Below the pieces are notes generated by a model. It searched no databases. It saw nothing but the letters and a program-made list of their open reading frames with translations, and had not been told where the DNA came from. Shown piece after piece: positions 2,750 through 13,451 of a stretch of DNA of 37,161 nt (position 1 is its first letter; every line of letters begins with the position of its first letter). Both the position numbers and the translations under genes were made by a program. The DNA comes from a virus: UHGV virus genome UHGV-0110762; one strand, written 5' to 3'.

Positions 2750-3312
2750 GCGGCGCATTGGCGCTGCTCCATCAACTCGTTAAAGCGATTGATGAACATG
2801 CCGTATGACTGGCCAGGACGAACTGGGTTGATAATGAATAAATCCGTTGGGACAACTCCCTCGAGGCATGGCCAAATGGAACCTTCGTCAATCTCAAAAT
2901 CTCGGCGTTCGCTGGCAAGCATCACCAGGTCGGCATATTTCACAGTTGGGTGTTGTTCCGTCGGTAGGCCAAATTTCTGGCGAATAGCAGCGTCTACGCG
3001 AGCTTCGATCGCCTGGTAATCCGGTAGCAGGCGCTTAAGAGGCGAGGGGATATCCTGCAGGTAGGCTTCGGCGGCATCATGAAGCAGTGCTTCTAATGCA
3101 AACTCCTGCGGAACGAGGTGGCTGGTTAAAACGCTATGCTGGCCGACGCTATAAAACTCAGGAAGATGCCCTGCAAAACGGCAGATATGAGACAAAGCGG
3201 TAGCAATATCCTCGATCACGATATCGTCCTGTTGGATATCGAGGTAATTAAAATGTTTGCCGGATAATGTCTGAATGTAGCTCATGGTTTTCCCCATATT
3301 GGCGCGCTGCAC
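2746..3312 (-). CDS. HD-domain metal-dependent phosphohydrolase, YfdR-like (5'-deoxynucleotidase family); start may be at 3285 (MSYIQ)
   Basis: H..LTSHLV and LLHDAAEAY motifs (HD signature); size about 180 aa as in E. coli CPS-53 YfdR. Confidence 0.7.
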   Translation of the reverse strand: MQRANMGKTMSYIQTLSGKHFNYLDIQQDDIVIEDIATALSHICRFAGHLPEFYSVGQHSVLTSHLVPQEFALEALLHDAAEAYLQDIPSPLKRLLPDYQAIEARVDAAIRQKFGLPTEQHPTVKYADLVMLASERRDFEIDEGSIWPCLEGVVPTDLFIINPVRPGQSYGMFINRFNELMEQRQCAA

Positions 3313-3377
3313 CGCGCAGATTTTGGTTGTACGAATCCCTCGCCGGTTGGCGATAATTAATGGAATTACGCTTCAAT

Positions 3378-3401
3378 AAATCCCCGCGGCGCCGGGGATT
3401 T
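3378..3401 (-). terminator. Hairpin (AAATCCCCGCGGCGCCGGGGATTT) followed by T-rich tract on the minus strand, downstream of the YfdQ-like gene
   Basis: Near-perfect GC-rich inverted repeat flanked by A/T runs in the 100-bp gap between two minus-strand genes. Confidence 0.45.
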
Positions 3402-3413
3402 AATGCAGAGCAA

Positions 3414-4241
3414 TTAGGCTTTAAAGTTACCGATGAAAGTTTCCACTGATTCACCTTCGAACTTGCTGATCAGCAAATCGCGGAATTCGTTGGCGATCTC
3501 TTCTTCCTGGGCTTCAAGTTGGACGATGCGCAGAACAAAGCAGGGTTCATCGCTGGTCAGCAGGCTGTTACGCAAGCTAAAGCGGCGTTCACCCAGACCT
3601 TCATACGGCACACATTTGAACTCGAACGCCACAGGCATTACGTCTTTGCTGCTTGCTTCAACGCTTTGCATCAGAGATTTTTTACCAGCGAAATCACCAG
3701 TTTCATGGTCCTGCTGTGTTGCTTGCTGAATAGTGATACGACGCACAGCCTGAGCCGCCTGTGAAATCTGCATCGTATTGCCATCAGCATCAAACGCCAG
3801 CAGGTAATCGCTCCAGTCTTCCAGCCATTCCGCGATTTGCTTTTGCTTCAGGCGTTGACCATCGATCTGCAGTAACGCTCGGAACGGGGCGGTTTTCTTC
3901 AGGGTGATTGAAGCAACGTTATCGGCGTGACCTGGATTATCCAGGGTGCCGATGTTGAACACTGAACGGGCGGTCATGTTGTCAGCGTCAATGAAGCAAC
4001 GAGCTGGCTCGCTGGCGCTGGCATAACCTTTAGAATAACGGGCGAAGTCGTCAATACTGGTTGTGGTCATTGCGCCACGAAAGCGGAAACGCTCCAGAGA
4101 AAAACGCTCGAGGCTTTCAACGCCAGTACCCTCTGGCAGTAATGCGGTCGGGCAAGCCAGGTCCTGAATATCATCCAGGTGATAACCGGAAAGAACCAGG
4201 TCTTTGACCTGCTTGAAGGTGCCGCTGTCTAACTGAGACAT
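3414..4241 (-). CDS. YfdQ-like protein (DUF2303 family, function unknown)
   Basis: 275 aa, the size of E. coli CPS-53 YfdQ, and sits between YfdR-like and YfdP-like genes in the same order as in CPS-53 (recalled, not searched). Confidence 0.6.
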   Translation of the reverse strand: MSQLDSGTFKQVKDLVLSGYHLDDIQDLACPTALLPEGTGVESLERFSLERFRFRGAMTTTSIDDFARYSKGYASASEPARCFIDADNMTARSVFNIGTLDNPGHADNVASITLKKTAPFRALLQIDGQRLKQKQIAEWLEDWSDYLLAFDADGNTMQISQAAQAVRRITIQQATQQDHETGDFAGKKSLMQSVEASSKDVMPVAFEFKCVPYEGLGERRFSLRNSLLTSDEPCFVLRIVQLEAQEEEIANEFRDLLISKFEGESVETFIGNFKA

Positions 4242-4669: not shown

Positions 4670-5280
4670 GGTTTTACCCTCGTTAAGGCGGCTGCCACCG
4701 CCGAACTTTCTCCATACACAACAGAGAAGGGCACCTGCATTGGTTGGCGGCTTGAGAGACCGCTTTCTTTTTGCCCGGGTGGATTGGGTTATGAGCCCGT
4801 CGCCCGGTGATGCCCTTGTCTGTTGTGTAAAAAGGGCGGTACCGAGGTAGAACATTATCTTCGTCCCCCTTGCATAAGGTTGAAGACCCTGGTACCGCCA
4901 AGACTACACACAGCATCTGGTACAGCTACTACGGGTTTACCACATCAAAAAGAGCACTACCGCGTTCTGCCGCCCCATCCTGGCTTTTGGTACTGCAACG
5001 GCTGCGAGATGTTTTTTGCATGCCAGCGCTCTTTTGGTTATGGACTCGTCTCTTCCGAGGTGTCACACCTGATCGCCACGCTGGTGAAACGTCTCTGGCT
5101 GCCGTACACGCCTGGCTTGCATATTCCGGCTACCCGCTGGATCTGGATATGTCTTGCAAGGAATCCCCGGACTGCTGCGGCACATGTGCCATATGCCGTA
5201 CTGCAACTGCTGCCTGTCTTTTCACCACATCAGGCTCAGTGGTATTCTTGGAGTTCTCACACAGCCAAGAAGATAAACCT

Positions 5281-5514
5281 ATGAATAACGATATTATTGA
5301 GTTAAGACTCACTGCTATTGAAGCTGCGATTAAGACCATTTCAGCTGCAATATGTGCTAATGAGGGCCCACTATCAGATGACCTGCATAACCAAATACAA
5401 TTATTGCGCGATCAACTGTCAAGCCCAGAAAACACTGTTAAACAGGAAGCCATCACCTATCAAACCATTAAGCTTCTTGATTCTCTTAATTGCGACCCGT
5501 GGGATCCGTTTTAA
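5281..5514 (+). CDS. Small hypothetical protein (77 aa) in AT-rich island of the immunity region
   Basis: ATG at 5281 begins a helical-looking peptide MNNDIIELRLTAIEAAIKTISAAICANEG...; sharp drop in GC content relative to flanks; weak RBS. Confidence 0.3.
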   Translation: MNNDIIELRLTAIEAAIKTISAAICANEGPLSDDLHNQIQLLRDQLSSPENTVKQEAITYQTIKLLDSLNCDPWDPF

Positions 5515-5689
5515 AAAACTTCTCATTGAAGGCCGCCATTTTAGATTTTGAACGAGCCCTTCGTTCGGAATGAAGGGTAAGTTGCATGTCCGATAGAGCG
5601 CTAAAAACGGCAGCATTGAATGCCAGAAACTCCGATTCATCACTGCACTCAGCAGTAATTTTCCCGTTAACAACCAACTCTATCTTCAT
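5486..5689 (-). CDS. Small hypothetical protein (67 aa) convergent with and overlapping the 3' end of the 5281..5514 ORF
   Basis: ATG at 5689 (MKIELVVNGKITAECSDESEF...); immediately downstream (leftward) of the OL-like operator repeats, so it would be the first gene of the leftward early transcript; RBS poor. Confidence 0.25.
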   Translation of the reverse strand: MKIELVVNGKITAECSDESEFLAFNAAVFSALSDMQLTLHSERRARSKSKMAAFNEKFFKTDPTGRN

Positions 5690-5836: not shown

Positions 5837-6469
5837 CTAAAGGTCAATGATAATTTGTTTAACTATCCCAATTAGATTGGTCTCTTGATTCACCTCAATG
5901 GGTTTAAACGCAGGATTCAGTGGGATTAGGTACGAAAACGGTGGGTCTATCGCCAGCTTTTTTAAAGTTGCCTCACCACCAGATACCGTTTGAGCAACGA
6001 CAATTTTACCGTTTGCCTCATCCACGAAGCCGAACTCTGGTTCAACAATAACAATAGAACCTTCAGGAATACTCAACTCCTGGCTAGAAGTCATTGAATC
6101 TCCCTTAACCCTCAAAGCAAAGGCGGAATCAGAAAGTTTTCGAGTGGTTTTCACTTGTTCATTATTAGGATTTCCAATTACTTCCGTCCAATTACCAGCT
6201 TGCACCCATGATATGAGAGGGACCTCTCTGGCAGACATCAAGTTGATGTTAATGCCATTTTCGATATCGCCTGAACCAAAAACCAACCATTCTGGCGAGC
6301 ACTGAAGGCATTTACACACCAATATCAAGTTCTCACCAGAAAGTTTTGTTAAATCACTTTCCCACTGGGTCACAGCAGACGCGCTTACTCCTGCCCACTC
6401 AGCCACATCGCGCTGGGTAAGTTTTTTCTGCTTTCTTCTAAATCTCAGTCTGCTGCCAACGGTATCCAT
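5837..6469 (-). CDS. cI: CI-like prophage repressor (N-terminal XRE HTH, C-terminal S24 LexA-like peptidase)
   Basis: N-terminal LTQRDVAEWAGVSASAVTQWE HTH; C-terminal ALRVKGDSM...KK Ser-Lys dyad typical of S24 autoproteolytic repressors; divergent from a Cro-like gene. Confidence 0.85.
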   Translation of the reverse strand: MDTVGSRLRFRRKQKKLTQRDVAEWAGVSASAVTQWESDLTKLSGENLILVCKCLQCSPEWLVFGSGDIENGININLMSAREVPLISWVQAGNWTEVIGNPNNEQVKTTRKLSDSAFALRVKGDSMTSSQELSIPEGSIVIVEPEFGFVDEANGKIVVAQTVSGGEATLKKLAIDPPFSYLIPLNPAFKPIEVNQETNLIGIVKQIIIDL

Positions 6470-6484
6470 AAAATCTCCTCGGAA

Positions 6485-6551
6485 TGTACGTTAGCAATCT
6501 TACATTTTATTGACGTAAGTATGCTGTCCATATACGATGTAAGAATGCTAA
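6485..6551. promoter_or_regulatory. OR-like operator/promoter region between cI and cro
   Basis: Inverted 15-bp repeats TTAGCAATCTTACAT (6491-6505) and ATGTAAGAATGCTAA (6537-6551; reverse complement TTAGCATTCTTACAT); TTGACG at 6510-6515 is a candidate -35 for the rightward promoter. Confidence 0.55.
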
Positions 6552-6569
6552 CTAAAGAGGATTCAAACC

Positions 6570-6773
6570 ATGCATAAAGGGACAGTCGTCGACTACTACG
6601 GCGGCATTTCTAAAACCGCAGTTGCCTTAGGGGTAACTCACAGTGCCGTATGTCAATGGGGTGAAGTAATCCCAGAAAAACAGGCTCTTTACATTGAAAG
6701 AATTACGAACGGGAAGTTGAAATACGACGCTTCTCTCTACAGCAAACTTAACAATTCTCAACACAAGCAGTAA
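6570..6773 (+). CDS. cro: Cro-like small HTH regulator
   Basis: 67 aa, AAGAGGA RBS, HTH-like ISKTAVALGVTHSAVCQW; divergent from cI across the operator region. Confidence 0.7.
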   Translation: MHKGTVVDYYGGISKTAVALGVTHSAVCQWGEVIPEKQALYIERITNGKLKYDASLYSKLNNSQHKQ

Positions 6774-6796
6774 CCACAGAGACAAGGGGGTTAGCC

Positions 6797-7348
6797 GTGG
6801 GTAATGAACCTAGTTGGAAAGTCGAACGTCAGCCAGCCTGGCTGGTGGTCGCAATAAAAAAAACCATTACCGACCTTCCTGGTGGGTATGCCGAGGCCGC
6901 GGAATGGTTAGGAACTTCAGAGAACGGGTTGTTCAACCGTCTCCGCACTGAGGGCGATCAGATATTCCCGTTGGGTTGGGCGATGGTTCTACAGCGTGCT
7001 GGTGGTTCGACTCATATTGCTGATGCCGTTGCGCGCCATTCTCAAGGCGTATTCGTACCGCTGGCAGATGTTGATGATTTGGATAACGCCGATATTAACC
7101 AGCGCCTGATGGAGTCCATTGAATGGATTGGTCGTCATTCTACCTTTGTGCGAAAGGCTACTGCTGATGGGGTGATTGACGCAGATGAGCGTGCTCAGAT
7201 AGAGGAGAACAGCTACCAGGTGATCGCGAAGTTTCAGGAGCACGTCACGCTGCTTTACCGAGTTTTTTGTGTCGCTGAAAAGAGTGACGCCCGCGAGTGT
7301 GCAGCTCCGGGCGCCTTGGCGAACAACTCTTCGAGTATGGAGAAATAA
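6797..7348 (+). CDS. CII-like / early regulatory protein (tentative functional call)
   Basis: GTG start with AAGGGGG RBS directly after cro; 183 aa; position equals lambda cII; functional assignment is by position and vague family recollection only. Confidence 0.45.
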   Translation: MGNEPSWKVERQPAWLVVAIKKTITDLPGGYAEAAEWLGTSENGLFNRLRTEGDQIFPLGWAMVLQRAGGSTHIADAVARHSQGVFVPLADVDDLDNADINQRLMESIEWIGRHSTFVRKATADGVIDADERAQIEENSYQVIAKFQEHVTLLYRVFCVAEKSDARECAAPGALANNSSSMEK

Positions 7349-7353
7349 TCCGC

Positions 7354-7680
7354 ATGAGCAATTTAATCGTAAATCCTCACTTACCGCAACTACGAATGAT
7401 CCCGGTGCCGGGTCTTCCGCTGTTTCGGTATGAATGCAAAGTATCAAATCGCTGGGTGTCATGTAACCACAGCCAGGCTGCCGTAATTGTGGGGGTCTAC
7501 TATCGGAGGGCAAAACGCCTGTGCGCGAACTTAACCGAAGGTTCAAAGATCACCGCGGAGTGCCAGTCCGTGTTATCCGCTGGGAGCCAGAAACACAGCG
7601 CGTTATCTACCTGCGAGATGGCTATCCACACGAATGCTTCAGCCCACTTGAGCATTTCAGGCAAAAGTTCAGGGAGATAA
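7354..7680 (+). CDS. Hypothetical ORF (109 aa); may be spurious, see alternative ORF 7521..7700
   Basis: ATG with GGAGAA RBS 9 nt upstream, but the translation is Ser/Cys/His-rich and not protein-like. Confidence 0.2.
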   Translation: MSNLIVNPHLPQLRMIPVPGLPLFRYECKVSNRWVSCNHSQAAVIVGVYYRRAKRLCANLTEGSKITAECQSVLSAGSQKHSALSTCEMAIHTNASAHLSISGKSSGR

Positions 7681-7700
7681 CGGACGATCATGAGCACTAA
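7521..7700 (+). CDS. Alternative small ORF (59 aa, GTG start) upstream of the replication initiator
   Basis: GGAGGG RBS 11 nt before GTG 7521; translation VRELNRRFKDHRGVPVRVIRWEPETQRVIYLRDGYPHECFSPLEHFRQKFREITDDHEH looks protein-like; overlaps the start of the O-like gene by 11 nt. Confidence 0.3.
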   Translation: MRELNRRFKDHRGVPVRVIRWEPETQRVIYLRDGYPHECFSPLEHFRQKFREITDDHEH

Positions 7701-8556
7701 ATTAACCGGCTACGTATGGGATGGTTGCGCAGCGTCGGGCATGAAGTTGTCCAGTGTTGCGATCATGGCTCGCCTTGCTGACTTCAGCAGCGATGAAGGT
7801 GTGTGCTGGCCGTCAATTGAAACTATTGCTCGCCAGCTTGGCGCAGGCCCGAGCACTATCAGAACGGCAATCGCAAAGCTTGAAAAAGATGGCTGGCTCA
7901 CACGTACACAGCGCCGTAATGGTAACCGTAATGCTTCGAACGTGTATCGGCTGAATGTGGCGAAACTTCAGACTGCCGCATTTTCTCAACTGTCAGATTC
8001 TGACACGTCAAAATCTGACGCATCAAAATTTGACGCCTCAAAAACTGACCCGTCGAAATCTGGCAAAAACGATGGTTTTGACCCGTCAGAATCTGGCGGG
8101 GATCCGTCAGTAAAATCAAAACAAGATCCACAAGTAACTTCAAAACCCTCTTGTCCGGTTGCGGCGCAACCCGACCCTGAGGTTGTGATTACTGATCAGG
8201 CCAGACAGGTCTTGTCTTACCTGAACCAGACAACTGGCTCACGCTACCAGGTATGCAGTACGTCGCTGGAGAATATTCGCGCCCGTCTTCGGGAACAATT
8301 CACGGTTGATGACCTGTGCCTGGTAGTGGATTACAAAAATGCCGATTGGCGTGATAGCGAGCAGGCGCAATACCTCCGCCCGGCAACTCTGTTCATTCCA
8401 AAAAACTTCCCTGGTTACCTGCAAAGCGCGACCAAATGGTCCAGTGCTGGCCGGCCTGAACGCGTTAACGGCAAATGGGAGACTAACTCAGCCAGCCGCG
8501 CAAACTTCCAGAGTGTTGATTACTCACTGCCAGAAAATTCGGGGTTCCGTTCATGA
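7690..8556 (+). CDS. Replication initiator, lambda O-like (N-terminal HTH origin-binding domain, low-complexity linker, conserved C-terminal domain)
   Basis: N-terminus SVAIMARLADFSSDEGVCWPSIETIARQLGAGPSTIRTAIAKLEKDGWL is a typical phage replication-protein HTH; contains tandem DNA iterons inside the coding region as lambda O does. Confidence 0.7.
   Translation: MSTKLTGYVWDGCAASGMKLSSVAIMARLADFSSDEGVCWPSIETIARQLGAGPSTIRTAIAKLEKDGWLTRTQRRNGNRNASNVYRLNVAKLQTAAFSQLSDSDTSKSDASKFDASKTDPSKSGKNDGFDPSESGGDPSVKSKQDPQVTSKPSCPVAAQPDPEVVITDQARQVLSYLNQTTGSRYQVCSTSLENIRARLREQFTVDDLCLVVDYKNADWRDSEQAQYLRPATLFIPKNFPGYLQSATKWSSAGRPERVNGKWETNSASRANFQSVDYSLPENSGFRS
7992..8118. repeat. Iteron array (candidate phage origin): five tandem 15-bp repeats of the GTCARAATCTGAC type (7992-8064) plus two degenerate copies (8084-8096, 8106-8118)
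   Basis: Direct repeats gtcagattctgac / gtcaaaatctgac / atcaaaatttgac / ctcaaaaactgac / gtcgaaatctggc at a 15-bp period; each unit has inverted ends (GTCAG...CTGAC); they encode the repetitive SDTSKSDASKFDASKTDPSKSG peptide. Confidence 0.55.
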
Positions 8557-9872
8557 TGACCAATAAATATTGCCAGGTGCTGGCGGCACTGCGTAGCAAA
8601 CCAGCTCACGAATTGAAAGAAGTTGGCGATCAGTGGCGGACACCGGATCTGCTTTTTTGGGGGATCAACGCGCTATTTGGTCCATTAGTTCTGGACTTGT
8701 TTGCTGACGACGACAACGCGAAGTGCCCAGCATGGTACACCGCCGAAGATAACGCGCTGACACAGCACTGGTCTGAACGTCTGGCAGAACTGGGCGGCGC
8801 TGGTTATGGCAACCCTCCGTATAGCCGTTCGCAGTACCACGAGAAGCAGGCGATCACCGGCATGACGCATATCATGAACTACGCAGCAGCCCAGCGCGAG
8901 AAGGGCGGTCGCTATGTATTCCTGATAAAAGCCGCGCCGAGTGAAACGTGGTGGCCAGAAGATGCCGATCACATTGTATTCATTCGTGGTCGTATTGGGT
9001 TCGATCTGCCTGTGTGGTTTGTACCTGCTGACGAAAAACAGAAACCCACCAGCGCGTTTTTTGCCGGTGCCATAGCTGTATTCGATAAGTCGTGGCGTGG
9101 TGAGCGGTTCAGCTATATCAACCGCACAGAACTGGAGGCAAAAGGGCGGGCGTTTATGACTTTGGCGCAATTTGCTGCCAGCAAGTCTCAACCTGCAACT
9201 GCCACACCTCCTGCAGCTGATAAGCCAGAAGCTGAGTTGCCACTCACTCAGAAAGATATTTTTGATGTCAGCGGCGTCGAGGCGTGGGCATGCGTTAGAG
9301 CTGCGTTTGGCGATAAAGAAGAATACACATTCAGTGAATCGAAGTTTGGGCATACCTGGGCGGCGGATTCTGTTGAAGCACCGGAATTCACTCAGGTATC
9401 ACCATTAACGATCGACAAAGCGAAGCTGCTTATTCGTGAGAGTATTTTGTTCGGTGTGGATGAGTGGTTGTTGTCGATTGAATTCGATGACGCTGCAGTG
9501 CGCCTGGATATGTCGGAACGTATTCGCACTGTTGCCCTTGAAGCATCCGGTGAATATGGCATGAACAGCACTGATTTCATTGCAGCCATGGGAAGCCTGG
9601 ATGTTTCCAGATGGTCCAATATTCGCCAGATCCGCATGCACATCCGTGAGAAAGCTAAACCAGTAGCGGATCCGCTTCCCGAGTCCCGTATCTGGCCACT
9701 GGAGGTTGGGATTGTGTTCAACCAGGTAGATGGCGCTGACATGTTGGATGAATCACAGCAGAACAAGCTGAAAGCCAACATCAATCAACTCTGGCTGGAA
9801 CGAACGGCCACCAGCGAAATCATTACTGCCGCTTCTGAACTTGTTCGCAATATGCGGGGAGAGGCCGCGTGA
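8553..9872 (+). CDS. Phage Dam-family N6-adenine DNA methyltransferase fused to a roughly 225-aa C-terminal domain of unknown function
   Basis: N-terminal about 215 aa carry the phage Dam family pattern (WRTPDLLF...LDLFADDDNAKC..YTAEDNAL...GNPPYS); ORF continues uninterrupted for a further 225 aa; ATGA overlap with the O-like gene. Confidence 0.65.
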   Translation: MMTNKYCQVLAALRSKPAHELKEVGDQWRTPDLLFWGINALFGPLVLDLFADDDNAKCPAWYTAEDNALTQHWSERLAELGGAGYGNPPYSRSQYHEKQAITGMTHIMNYAAAQREKGGRYVFLIKAAPSETWWPEDADHIVFIRGRIGFDLPVWFVPADEKQKPTSAFFAGAIAVFDKSWRGERFSYINRTELEAKGRAFMTLAQFAASKSQPATATPPAADKPEAELPLTQKDIFDVSGVEAWACVRAAFGDKEEYTFSESKFGHTWAADSVEAPEFTQVSPLTIDKAKLLIRESILFGVDEWLLSIEFDDAAVRLDMSERIRTVALEASGEYGMNSTDFIAAMGSLDVSRWSNIRQIRMHIREKAKPVADPLPESRIWPLEVGIVFNQVDGADMLDESQQNKLKANINQLWLERTATSEIITAASELVRNMRGEAA

Positions 9873-10255
9873 AACTGATCCTGCCTTTTCCTCCGAGCGT
9901 GAACACTTACTGGCGCGCCCCTAACAAGGGGCCGCTGGCCGGTCGTCACCTCATTAGCGCTGATGGCCGTAAATACCAGAGCGCTGCCTGCGTGGCGATC
10001 ATTGAGCAATTACGACGTCTCCCGAAGCCATCGACTGAACTGGCTGCGGTAGAAATCACTCTGTACCCGCCAGATGCGCGCCGCCGGGATATCGATAATT
10101 ACAACAAAGCCCTGTTTGACGCGCTGACGCATGCGGGTGTCTGGGAAGACGACAGCCAGATTAAGCGCATGCTGGTGGAATGGGGACCCGTAGTGCCGAA
10201 AGGTCGGGTAGAGATAACGATCAGCAGATATGAACCGGCGGGTGCAGCCGCCTGA
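9869..10255 (+). CDS. rusA: RusA-family Holliday junction resolvase
   Basis: MKLILPFPPSVNTYW N-terminus and overall 128-aa size are characteristic of RusA; GTGA-type overlap with the upstream gene. Confidence 0.85.
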   Translation: MKLILPFPPSVNTYWRAPNKGPLAGRHLISADGRKYQSAACVAIIEQLRRLPKPSTELAAVEITLYPPDARRRDIDNYNKALFDALTHAGVWEDDSQIKRMLVEWGPVVPKGRVEITISRYEPAGAAA

Positions 10256-10268
10256 TATGGAGAAAAGT

Positions 10269-10952
10269 ATGAGCCAATTAGCAACAACAGCATTAACCAT
10301 GTCCAGCAGCGATATTGCTGAGCTGGTGGAATCACGACATGACCATGTTAAACGGTCCATTGAACGCCTGGCAGAGCGCGGTGTTATTGAACTCCCCCCA
10401 ATGGGGGAAGTTAAAAATCACCTCAATCAGTCGGTATCGGTTTATCTGATAGGGAAGCGGGACAGTTATATCGTTGTCGCGCAGCTGTCGCCGGAGTTTA
10501 CCGCGCGTCTGGTTGATCGCTGGCAGGAGCTTGAGCAGGCACAGCAGCAGACGATTCCTCAATCATTCTCTGAAGCCCTACGTCTTGCAGCTGACCTTGC
10601 AGAACAAAAACAACAGTTGACTAACGAACTGGCTGCCGCTGCGCCGAAGGTAGCGTTTGTTGATCGGTACTGTACAGCCAGTGGGTCAATGTCATTCCGC
10701 CAGGTGGCAAAACTGCTTAAGGCCAAAGAGCCAGATCTGCGGTTATTCCTCCTTGAGAACGACATCATGTATCGCCTTGGCGGAACGATGACCCCACGGC
10801 ATCAGCATATTGATGCGGGCCGTTTTGAAATGAAAACCGGCACATCCGTAACCTCAAATCATGCATTCAGCCAGGCACGTTTCACGGCGAAAGGCGTGCG
10901 CTGGATTGGTGGACTGTGGGCAGAACACATTGCCAGGGGGCAGGTCGCGTGA
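10269..10952 (+). CDS. Antirepressor-like protein (Rha N-terminal domain plus KilA-C/ANT C-terminal domain)
   Basis: ATG 10269 preceded by GGAGAA; N-terminal SSDIAELVESRHDHVKRSIERL Rha-like; C-terminal FRQVAKLL...LENDIMYR.GG ANT-like. Confidence 0.65.
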   Translation: MSQLATTALTMSSSDIAELVESRHDHVKRSIERLAERGVIELPPMGEVKNHLNQSVSVYLIGKRDSYIVVAQLSPEFTARLVDRWQELEQAQQQTIPQSFSEALRLAADLAEQKQQLTNELAAAAPKVAFVDRYCTASGSMSFRQVAKLLKAKEPDLRLFLLENDIMYRLGGTMTPRHQHIDAGRFEMKTGTSVTSNHAFSQARFTAKGVRWIGGLWAEHIARGQVA

Positions 10953-11944
10953 GAGCTCTGCTTACCCCCGAGATCGCCCATCGTATGGGGATTGTGCTGT
11001 TCCGTCCCGGTACGGAACTGATGCACCTCTTCATGCGTGGTCGCGTTCTGCTCGAGCCTGAACCAGAAGAAATGGCGTCATTCAGTACCGGGGCTGTTCC
11101 GGCAGCCATTCAGCCGCTAGCTGATGATCCGGTAATGCGTCAGGTCTTCGAGAATGAGAGGGTTATTCAGCGTGCCGGTGGGCTTCCTTCCCTTGAGCAA
11201 TGGTTGAGTAATCGGTTTGAATGCCAGTGGCCACATTCAACGTGGCACGACAAGAACTTCACAACAATGCGGCACCCACCAGGAAGTATTCGCCTGTGCT
11301 GGCATTGCGATCACACTTTGTCGGGGCAGCATACCGAACAGCTTGCAGGTATAGCGGCCGGAAACCTGGTATCCTGGATTCTGGAAGTCATTCGGCGTGA
11401 TTCTGGTTTTCCCGAGTCGCATATCCTGACGCTTCCTGAACTGTGCTGGTGGATGGTCAGAAACGACCTGGCTGATGTTATTCCGGAAAGCGTTGCGCAC
11501 AAAGGGTTGCGCCTTCCGGATGAGAAGATCCGTTCTGTCATGAGGGAAAGCGACATAGTGCCTTCCTCGTCAGCAACCAGACTTGTGCAGGAGAAGGCGA
11601 AGAAGATCCTCACGCTCTCTGTTGATCCGGAGTCGCCAGAGTCTTTTATGCTCAGGCCAAAACGTCGCCGCTGGATAAATGAGACGTACACCCGCTGGGT
11701 TAAAACACAACCCTGTGAGTGTTGCCGACGGCCAGCAGATGATCCGCACCATATCGTAGGGCACGGTATGGGTGGTACAGCAACAAAAGCCCATGACCTC
11801 TTCGTGATCCCTCTGTGCAGAGAGTGCCACGACGAGTTACACGCCGATGTACCAGCATTCGAGCAGAAGCATGGTACGCAGCTTGAGCTGCTACTGCGTT
11901 TTATGGATCGGGCGCTGGCGATCGGCGTAATTGCGAAAGCTTAA
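10949..11944 (+). CDS. DUF968-like protein with C-terminal HNH-like zinc finger (YdfU-like)
   Basis: GTG 10949 overlaps the upstream stop (GTGA); C-terminus CECCRRPADDPHHIVGHGMGG...CRECHDELH. Confidence 0.55.
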   Translation: MRALLTPEIAHRMGIVLFRPGTELMHLFMRGRVLLEPEPEEMASFSTGAVPAAIQPLADDPVMRQVFENERVIQRAGGLPSLEQWLSNRFECQWPHSTWHDKNFTTMRHPPGSIRLCWHCDHTLSGQHTEQLAGIAAGNLVSWILEVIRRDSGFPESHILTLPELCWWMVRNDLADVIPESVAHKGLRLPDEKIRSVMRESDIVPSSSATRLVQEKAKKILTLSVDPESPESFMLRPKRRRWINETYTRWVKTQPCECCRRPADDPHHIVGHGMGGTATKAHDLFVIPLCRECHDELHADVPAFEQKHGTQLELLLRFMDRALAIGVIAKA

Positions 11945-11960
11945 GAAGTATGGAGACCGT

Positions 11961-12791
11961 ATGAATCTGGACAATGTTTTAAAGTTTTTTGCGCCTAAAG
12001 GCATGCACATATCAGATACCAGTAGAGCGACAGCCAGTGAACAACTGACGGTTACTGATGTAATGGCTGCATTGGGGATGACTCAGGCCGATGCGGGGAT
12101 CGGGCTGGCAATGTTTTTAGGTAAAGCTGGTATCAGCAGCCAGGACAGAGAGGCGTCAATAACCTGGCTAACTGAGTACGCGAAAGAGCATGCGCCCATG
12201 GCCATTCGCAAAGCATCAGGGAAAAAGTTTCCCCTCTGCATGCGTATCCTTGCCCGGTTTGCCTATAACGATTATTCCTCATCAGCAGCTGATTGTGTGG
12301 CATGCCCAAAATGTAGTGGTAAAGGGTTGCTTACAACCACTAAAACCGTGACTAAAAGCCATTACACAATGCGATTGCCACAATGGGCAAAAGACCTGAG
12401 ACAGTCACCATCTGACTTTGAGGTAAAGCGAGAAGTAACTGACTCCGAGCAAAGTTTATGTTCGCGATGCCATGGTACCGGAAAGTTAAGTAAGCGATGC
12501 CAGTGTGGCGGAACTGGCAAGACGGTTGACCGTAAAGCGACAGAACTGCAGGGCGTACCAGTTTACAAAGAATGTAAGCGCTGCGAAGGGCGGGGATACA
12601 GCAGGCCAAAATCATCGGTTGCCTATCGAGGTGTTTTTTCTGAGTTGCCGAGTCTGCCTGACCGAACGTGGCGTTATAGCTGGAAACCATTCTATGAAAG
12701 CCTGGTGACCAAATGTTTCCAGGAGGAGAGTTATTCAAGCTCTCAACTGAATCGGGTGACTAAAAGTGAAGATGTGATAAATATCGCGTAA
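11961..12791 (+). CDS. Putative late-gene antiterminator (Q-like by position) with four DnaJ-type CxxCxGxG zinc-finger repeats
   Basis: ATG 11961 with GGAGA RBS; CPKCSGKG, CSRCHGTGK, CQCGGTGK, CKRCEGRG repeats; lies directly upstream of a strong promoter plus short-transcript terminator and the lysis genes, the position of lambda Q. Confidence 0.45.
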   Translation: MNLDNVLKFFAPKGMHISDTSRATASEQLTVTDVMAALGMTQADAGIGLAMFLGKAGISSQDREASITWLTEYAKEHAPMAIRKASGKKFPLCMRILARFAYNDYSSSAADCVACPKCSGKGLLTTTKTVTKSHYTMRLPQWAKDLRQSPSDFEVKREVTDSEQSLCSRCHGTGKLSKRCQCGGTGKTVDRKATELQGVPVYKECKRCEGRGYSRPKSSVAYRGVFSELPSLPDRTWRYSWKPFYESLVTKCFQEESYSSSQLNRVTKSEDVINIA

Positions 12792-12834
12792 TTTAGCGTC
12801 ATGATGTTTGCAATGTTGCCGTATTTGTGTATAT

Positions 12835-12862
12835 TTGACATCAATGATGGGCTTTGTATAAC
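12835..12862 (+). promoter_or_regulatory. Strong sigma70-type promoter (TTGACA-16 bp-TATAAC), candidate late promoter pR'
   Basis: Perfect -35 TTGACA at 12835-12840, 16-bp spacer, TATAAC at 12857-12862, 44 bp after the Q-like gene stop. Confidence 0.55.
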
Positions 12863-12880
12863 TATCGATCACTATGATAA

Positions 12881-12903
12881 CCTCACCTCGGTGGGGTTTT
12901 TTT
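12881..12903 (+). terminator. Rho-independent terminator (candidate tR') about 20-35 nt downstream of the promoter
   Basis: Hairpin CCTCACC-TCG-GTGGGG followed by TTTTTTT; promoter plus immediate terminator is the arrangement Q acts on in lambdoid phages. Confidence 0.5.
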
Positions 12904-12914
12904 ATGGTGATAGT

Positions 12915-13451
12915 ATGGAACTGACTAAAGAAAATGTTGCATTAATTGCTGCTTTGGGGATTTTTGTGGGTACATTGATAACTTCTCTTACAAGTTACCT
13001 CCAGAACAGTAGTAGGCAGTCGCATGAGTGGCGCTCAGAAAGAAATAGAAGGAAAATTGAAAAGGGTGAACAGCTTTATGAGGCATTAATACTTTATAAA
13101 AAATTGCTTTTTGCCAATCATATGAGCTGGATAAATTGTATTGATGGGTGTTTTAAATCTGAGGACATTGGCGATAAATCAGACGAAATTCTCAGTAAAA
13201 ACCCTGAGTATAAAGGAGTTGGTGATAGAATTATTTTAATCTCTGGTGTTTATTTTCCTGAGATTAGCGTTATGTTTGATGAATCTAGAAAATTGCTGAA
13301 ACCAGCCAATTCTGTTTTCTTCAAAATACAGTCAGGTGAAGTTGACGATAAGAAATTGGCGAAGAATATAATTCTAAACGCTGGTCATAATTTTGATAAG
13401 GAGGCTAATAAAATGTTGGACTGTTTATCGAAAGAGATTAGATCGTTGTAA
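12915..13451 (+). CDS. Moron: membrane-anchored hypothetical protein (179 aa, one N-terminal TM helix)
   Basis: AT-rich codon usage distinct from surrounding phage genes; N-terminal hydrophobic segment VALIAALGIFVGTLITSLTSYL followed by a charged soluble domain; between tR'-like terminator and holin. Confidence 0.5.
   Translation: MELTKENVALIAALGIFVGTLITSLTSYLQNSSRQSHEWRSERNRRKIEKGEQLYEALILYKKLLFANHMSWINCIDGCFKSEDIGDKSDEILSKNPEYKGVGDRIILISGVYFPEISVMFDESRKLLKPANSVFFKIQSGEVDDKKLAKNIILNAGHNFDKEANKMLDCLSKEIRSL

Follow-up and report, generated by a model that had tools for sequence, protein, structure and literature searches.

The virus genome UHGV-0110762, whose entire 37,161 nucleotides are referred to here as the window, contains a gene for a predicted DNA methyltransferase built from three modules: a catalytic head of the Dam family, an optional cassette, which we call X, and a tail. 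The two added modules are portable, acidic, helical and non-catalytic, and they represent two undescribed domain families, with no Pfam family, PDB sequence or fold assignment. We propose, with a probability of roughly 0.55, that the protein is an orphan phage Dam enzyme whose X and tail are portable protein-interaction modules, encoded by a prophage with an initiator-only replication module. Orphan methylases of phages are commonly regarded as single-domain anti-restriction enzymes; here one is accompanied by two portable accessory modules. The catalytic part is ordinary, and the gene is already annotated in RefSeq and common in prophages of Enterobacterales. New are the dissection of its C-terminal extension into cassette and tail, the portability of both between different heads and their lack of any family or fold match. 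Both X and tail merit definition as domain families.

The catalytic head

In the first-pass annotation, the gene was described as a complete N-terminal Dam-family domain with an NPPYS motif, fused in one open reading frame (ORF) to a 225-aa unknown domain and occupying the position of a helicase loader. The assignment of the head holds well. Pfam family Dam (PF05869) matches residues 19-199 (profile positions 3-167 of 169; score 144 bits, cutoff 28.1; E=4.5e-42) and the NCBIfam equivalog TIGR01712, "phage N-6-adenine-methyltransferase", matches residues 16-197 (203.8 bits against a cutoff of 97.05), both scores thus exceeding the curated cutoffs. A RefSeq homologue, WP_000988891.1, bears the same name and its gene is 99.7% identical to the window gene in nucleotide sequence. 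NPPYS (residues 87-91) is invariant across 30 homologues and conforms to the (D/N)PP(Y/F) pattern of catalytic motif IV. The block L47-D48-L49-F50-A51-D52, also invariant in the alignment, is a candidate motif I for binding of S-adenosylmethionine, within a head that was modelled at low confidence: residues 1-191 of the full-length model have predicted local distance difference test (pLDDT) values below 50, owing to the shallow alignment of the Dam head. The protein is accordingly a predicted orphan phage N6-adenine DNA methyltransferase of the Dam family. Its gene is tightly packed between its neighbours, sharing an ATGA overlap with the stop codon of the upstream replication gene (rep) and a GTGA overlap with the start of the downstream RusA gene (Table 1).

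Anatomy of the extension

The supposed single unknown domain turned out to be composite. It consists of a linker, the X domain of about 140 aa (residues 229-372) and the tail of about 65 aa (residues 375-439). That it was unfamiliar stands as far as Pfam and PDB are concerned: residues 206-439 have no Pfam match even at E<=10 and the extension, about 230 aa, has no sequence match in PDB. The tail, on the other hand, already falls within PHROG 111 and, when taken alone, within PHROG 16025.

Residues 225-439 were modelled alone with AlphaFold2 (AF2), since the Dam head was poor in the full-length model. The resulting model is all-alpha, with mean pLDDT of 87.8. X comprises nine helices in two lobes, its 10-residue blocks averaging pLDDT 90-95; a disordered hinge (residues 372-378) leads to the three helices of the tail, with block means of 87-91. 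Foldseek comparison of the full-length model with PDB returned nothing, in part owing to the poorly modelled head, while searches with the extension against PDB and BFVD matched no known fold, those of helicase loaders included. A profile of X compared with PDB sequences, together with Pfam scans of the individual members (E<=10), gave no match and no helix-turn-helix (HTH) family.

X has an isoelectric point (pI) of 4.7 and a net charge of -8 to -9 over 144-145 aa, and all its members are acidic (pI 4.5-5.9); the tail carries a net charge of -4 over 65 aa. Because the model is confidently all-alpha, X is acidic and no family or fold is matched, we consider the modules to be neither catalytic nor DNA-binding. 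The N-terminal lobe of X is highly conserved (SGVEAWACVxAAFGxKxEYTFSESKFxHTWAADS), whereas the C-terminal lobe is variable except for R323 and a helix with the pattern W-x-N-I-R-x-I-R.

Table 1. Location of the described features; coordinates without a locus refer to the window, and L numbers denote related loci
Feature	Coordinates	Strand	Basis or remark
Dam-X-tail gene, complete, stop codon included	8553..9872	+	ORF, 439 aa, ATG start
Dam-family m6A methyltransferase catalytic domain, aa 16-199	8598..9149	+	PF05869, TIGR01712
Catalytic motif IV NPPY, aa 87-90	8811..8822	+	seen in translation
X cassette at DNA level	9178..9680	+	blastn of 7690-10255 against L014-L016, break at query 1489-1991
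X domain, acidic, all-alpha, aa 229-372	9237..9668	+	AF2 model, alignments, ParB-like homologues
Tail, three helices, acidic, aa 375-439	9675..9869	+	alignment with Sb44 and phiNP mtase; phrog_16025 on aa 379-434
Replication initiator (winged-helix HTH_36 + Phg_2220_C), coupled to Dam gene	7690..8556	+	Pfam, PHROG, TIGR02220
5-6 iterons within rep, 15-nt spacing, TGACnCGTCAAAATC-like	7992..8097	.	repeat family D1, inverted repeats I1/I3
DUF4222 small gene, 59 aa, overlaps rep start	7521..7700	+	PF13973, E=4e-17
RusA resolvase gene, coupled to Dam gene end	9869..10255	+	PF05866
ParB-X-tail protein, 505 aa	L152 4107-5621		tail homologue 38% identical to window tail
85-aa tail genes coupled to large C5-cytosine methylases, Klebsiella prophages	L009 3435-5662; L010-L013 4001-6237

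X is an optional cassette

Shorter relatives of the enzyme show where X begins and ends. Sb44 of Salmonella phage ST64B (297 aa) and the phiNP mtase of Citrobacter (293 aa) align to residues 1-231 and 374-439 of the window protein, which has about 140 additional residues between these two parts. The same boundary is visible at the DNA level. In three short-form prophages (L014-L016), 62 nt correspond to the 503 nt of the X cassette, an in-frame difference of 441 nt or 147 codons. The flanking DNA is nearly the same, 96.5-97.3% identical over 7690-9177 and about 93% over 9681-10221. These prophages code for a 292-aa Dam protein, with rep, RusA and DUF968 as neighbouring genes, as in the window, and with an antiterminator of the Q type. 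X is thus an optional in-frame cassette inserted into the linker of an ordinary 292-aa Dam-tail protein.

X and tail on other heads

A word-indexed homology search with X alone gave only fragments, so that 1.84 billion representative proteins had to be searched exhaustively with HMMER. This yielded only 20 X clusters, comprising Dam-X-tail proteins, ParB-like proteins of 435-446 aa with a C-terminal X and a few small ORFs with X only or half of it. No X was found in the 72,556 plasmids searched. The second group belongs to the ParB-like proteins of temperate phages (PHROG 1033; HTH_ParB PF17762), some of which carry the same X at their C-terminus with 37-43% identity; their head is a ParB/HTH domain, whereas that of the window protein is a methylase. 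When the ParB-type X was used for retrieval from IMG/VR, 78 of 80 loci contained ParB-like-X proteins. One further locus (L152) codes for a ParB-X-tail protein, which shows that the two modules can also occur jointly on a head other than a methylase.

Genes for ParB-like-X proteins occupy a familiar place. In locus L007, such a gene lies directly downstream of an HTH_36-type rep, and the gene order is that of the window: cI, cro, cII, DUF4222, Rep, the X-bearing gene and, further on, DUF968 and Q. In Pantoea phage AH07 two small genes are located between rep and the ParB-like-X gene. In both AH07 (gp48-gp49; L005 4125-6199) and L007 (6001-8275), the ParB-like-X gene is followed by a gene for a TGT/DpdA-like protein of 251 aa (phrog_887, "queuine tRNA-ribosyltransferase"). 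This pair could be a phage system for 7-deazaguanine DNA modification. As a general rule for ParB-like-X proteins, however, a phage DpdB/DpdA pair was dropped, as a TGT/DpdA-like gene adjoins them in just 11 of 79 loci. Compared with the bacterial DpdA/DpdB system (PMC10164549), ParB-like-X proteins are not established as equivalents of DpdB.

An X-only protein was met in a different setting. Locus L017 contains two genes of 184 aa (2969-3523 and 5001-5555), about 1.5 kb apart, the second of which codes for the X-only protein P0014. This element carries a Pox_D5-like fragment and a CdiI_2 immunity gene, and its context is not lambdoid-like.

The tail is far more widespread than X. A free-standing homologue of 85 aa forms more than 900 clusters, and a hidden Markov model built from Dam tails matches all 120 among those listed. 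Its gene overlaps the start of a gene for a large C5-cytosine methylase (621-715 aa) in Klebsiella phage 5 LV-2017 and in 4/4 prophage contexts examined. The free-standing tail may be a small subunit or a regulator of these C5-cytosine methylases. The prophages concerned possess either ordinary Phage_rep_O and lambda_P or DnaC/IstB-type replication genes. C5 methylases of this tail-coupled kind also occur downstream of Dam-X-tail genes (37 of 80 IMG/VR loci), as does RusA (30 of 80), which follows the gene in the window too.

Conservation of the fusion

The ORF has the same length, with no insertions or deletions, in 24 complete Escherichia coli genomes at 96-99.7% nucleotide identity, among them those of Nissle 1917 (96.1%) and VREC0761 (99.7%). 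Proteins built in this way, 439-448 aa long, are present in Citrobacter, Salmonella, Klebsiella, Pantoea and Erwinia, with identity decreasing to 64-66%, so that dozens of clusters (at 90% identity) from six genera keep the full ORF length. Of 80 IMG/VR loci retrieved with the Dam-type X, 75 code for intact Dam-X-tail. In comparison with phage Eeyore, for which synonymous sites are saturated, the ratio of nonsynonymous to synonymous substitution rates (dN/dS) amounts to 0.05 in the Dam head, 0.13 in X and 0.10 in the tail. These comparisons point to a fusion conserved under purifying selection. The claim of a genuine single-ORF fusion is therefore confirmed by the comparison with homologues in E. 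coli and five further genera. A sequencing frameshift or assembly error joining two genes has next to no probability: truncated or frameshifted versions exist in a small number of database entries (P0075, P0119, P0142 and 5 of the 80 IMG/VR loci), of which we count none as real support, and such an error is rejected by the length kept across genomes and genera, the intact IMG/VR loci and dN/dS well below 1 in this frame.

Possible roles of X and tail

The prophage is lambdoid and the gene belongs to its early-right (nin-like) operon, with loading of DnaB presumably supplied by the host. In the interpretation we favour, X and tail would act as modules for protein-protein interaction, associating with themselves or docking to a partner. 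In this way early DNA-acting proteins would be positioned or assembled on replicating phage DNA, which would speed up or focus the methylation of new phage genomes. Several observations weigh against this interpretation. It is architecture and charge only that lead us to infer an adaptor role. Conservation of the N-terminal lobe of X is close to that of the catalytic domain (proportion of nonsynonymous differences, pN, 0.11 vs 0.10). This is unusually high if the lobe only served docking or oligomerisation, and it could hide a ligand-binding or enzymatic site. The invariant N-x-R-x-x-R helix of the C-terminal lobe could contact DNA. Finally, nearly all occurrences of X adjoin Rep genes of the HTH_36 type, so that X may have a specific link to this initiator, although short-form Dam genes share the same context. 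Partners of X or tail, once recognised, would show how temperate phages position or regulate proteins that modify or coat their DNA in early replication.

A narrower proposal, to which we give a rather low probability, is that X, together with the tail, is a docking unit by which early proteins that act on DNA but are otherwise unrelated would be tethered to the initiator-only replication machinery of this phage lineage. The docking target would be either a protein of the host replisome or, at the iteron origin, Rep or DUF4222; Dam, ParB-like proteins and, through the tail, C5 methylases would then modify or coat phage DNA during its synthesis. In eukaryotes, DNMT1 is targeted to the replication fork. 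Tethering, if true, would be a bacterial-virus counterpart of such fork targeting of maintenance methylases. A conceptual precedent for a methylase tied to replication is provided by plasmid enzymes M.EcoGIX/M.BceJIII (PMC7736820), whose domains are not homologous to those described here. Any coupling of Dam-X-tail to replication is hypothetical.

It is similarly tentative that X is mainly a self-association domain, which would replace the C-terminal dimerisation domain in ParB-like proteins and, in Dam, would make the enzyme dimeric and able to methylate a palindromic site on both strands in a single encounter. X follows right after the ParB N-domain and HTH_ParB on their C-terminal side, a place at which phage ParB-like proteins of phrog_1033 typically have about 80 further residues (the match covers positions 15-257 of 334). 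It is also optional for Dam and forms a compact helical bundle in the model. Profile comparison nevertheless gave little encouragement, as hhalign aligned X to Gp35 of Klebsiella phage 5 LV-2017 with a probability of 0.6%, and did so on its HTH, not on the C-terminus. That the N-terminal lobe is so highly conserved on both Dam and ParB-like heads would fit a shared external partner as well.

The remaining two roles are weaker rivals. It is improbable that X, the tail or both act against host defence, inhibiting a restriction or other defence protein or serving as its decoy, and so add a second line of protection to a DNA-modifying enzyme. Both modules are acidic, attached to or coupled with DNA methylases, and optional and mosaic like many counter-defence genes, and X is phage-restricted, with no occurrence in the plasmids searched. 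Searches against PDB and BFVD, however, detected no fold similarity to known anti-restriction proteins, and most ParB-like-X loci have no adjoining modification enzyme. DNA mimics of the Ocr/ArdA type have very high negative charge density, unlike X, whose charge of about -8 over 144 aa is modest beside theirs; neither their charge density nor a DNA-mimic fold was found, and none of them was among the neighbours in the fold searches.

Slightly less probable still is a DNA-binding or targeting domain that would use an HTH-like C-terminal lobe to direct the head to particular DNA, for example around the origin. In X, the final three helices do resemble a helix-turn-helix, N356, R358 and R361 are invariant along with R323, and the gene adjoins an iteron-bearing origin. 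Against this, X is acidic overall in every member, no HTH family was recovered from the Pfam scans of members or the PDB profile search, and both the Dam and ParB-like heads already bind DNA. Putative target sites of Dam do not mark the origin either: GATC is not clustered there, with only 3 sites just downstream of the iterons (180 in the window vs 144 expected).

The replication module and the helicase-loader idea

The initiator gene upstream of Dam contains an iteron array which, with its flanking inverted repeats, encodes a repetitive SDSDTSKSDASKFDASK stretch of Rep. This array is probably the origin of the phage. An origin inside the initiator gene is present also in lambda O. A DUF4222 gene immediately upstream of HTH_36-type rep recurs in L007, L015 and L020-L023, and its product may be a small accessory of this replicon type.

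No helicase or loader was found among the window ORFs by Pfam and PHROG scans covering both arms, as the first-pass annotation had stated, nor in the related loci L004, L005, L007, L014-L016 and L021-L023, which include X-less ones. The module is best read as initiator-only, with a variable nin-like group of accessory genes behind it, and we infer that helicase loading is supplied by the host. "Initiator-solo" modules are described in the literature; our literature searches gave nothing specific on them, on this Dam subfamily or on the methylome of E. coli Nissle.

In the absence of a loader gene, the extension had been suggested to stand in for one of lambda-P/DnaC type, recruiting host DnaB to the initiator. 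The suggestion draws on the direct succession and translational coupling of rep and Dam, on the lack of any loader or helicase in the window and on the nearly constant association of X with this type of Rep. We consider it very unlikely and reject it. X is dispensable for this replicon, because prophages with the same rep (96.5-97.3% identical) and the same neighbours carry the 292-aa Dam. The tail is present in prophages that already code for O and P or for DnaC-like loaders, and X is found on ParB-like proteins. In ST64B and in an Erwinia prophage another small gene separates rep from Dam, therefore the "second slot" behind the initiator is not a fixed position. The remote-homology and structure-prediction check that had been recommended gave no loader similarity: hhalign assigned the X profile a probability of 0.3% with a lambda-P-like protein and 0.1% with a DnaC-like one, and fold searches found no match of the C-terminal part to a loader fold. 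Likeness to lambda P (PF06992) and DnaC/IstB-type (PF01695) loaders is limited to the position right after the initiator gene; DnaC has an AAA+ alpha/beta core, whereas the extension is all-alpha, with no AAA+ fold in its model and no sequence similarity. X and tail thus most probably do not load the helicase, nor would this replicon need them in order to replicate, and no new mechanism of helicase loading is revealed by the present finding.

Relation to known methyltransferases

The nearest described relatives, Sb44 and the phiNP mtase, share with the window protein the head (78% identical overall), the same NPPY and the tail (about 75%). Their genes also lie downstream of an HTH_36-type rep in the early-right operon, often followed by RusA. 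The difference is X, which they lack and which adds 140 aa between head and tail of the window protein.

Dam genes of ST64B (sb44, L003 4001-4894) and phage Eeyore (L004 4308-5642) are labelled "phosphoadenosine phosphosulfate reductase" in RefSeq and in Pharokka-style annotation. The label originates from phrog_33262, a family of fusions of phosphoadenosine phosphosulfate reductase and Dam, of which only the Dam half is matched (positions 283-492 of 495). Judged by this match the label is wrong, an annotation artefact.

Neighbouring genes

ORFs of the region code for cI/cro/cII, DUF4222, Rep, Dam, RusA, Ant, DUF968 and Q. The left arm of the window contains genes for an exonuclease, a phosphatase and unknowns, the right arm those for lysis, terminase, portal, head and tail. 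No Rfam family was detected within 6400-13000. The longest ORFs of the DUF968/HNH-like gene (10916-11944, 342 aa, GTG start) and the Rha/KilAC antirepressor (10230-10952, 240 aa) overlap by 37 nt; the true starts of both are probably located downstream of the longest-ORF starts, and RefSeq places both later.

Between the Q antiterminator and holin lies an ORF of 216 aa (12801-13451) with no PHROG match, and probably represents a moron, that is, a lysogenic-conversion gene; its RefSeq homologue is named "heme biosynthesis HemY N-terminal domain-containing protein". Defence or toxin morons adjoin Q in related prophages: KwaA (Kiwa) in L007 (10579-11100) and an RNAse_A_bac/CdiI_2 pair in an Erwinia prophage (L023 8176-9288).

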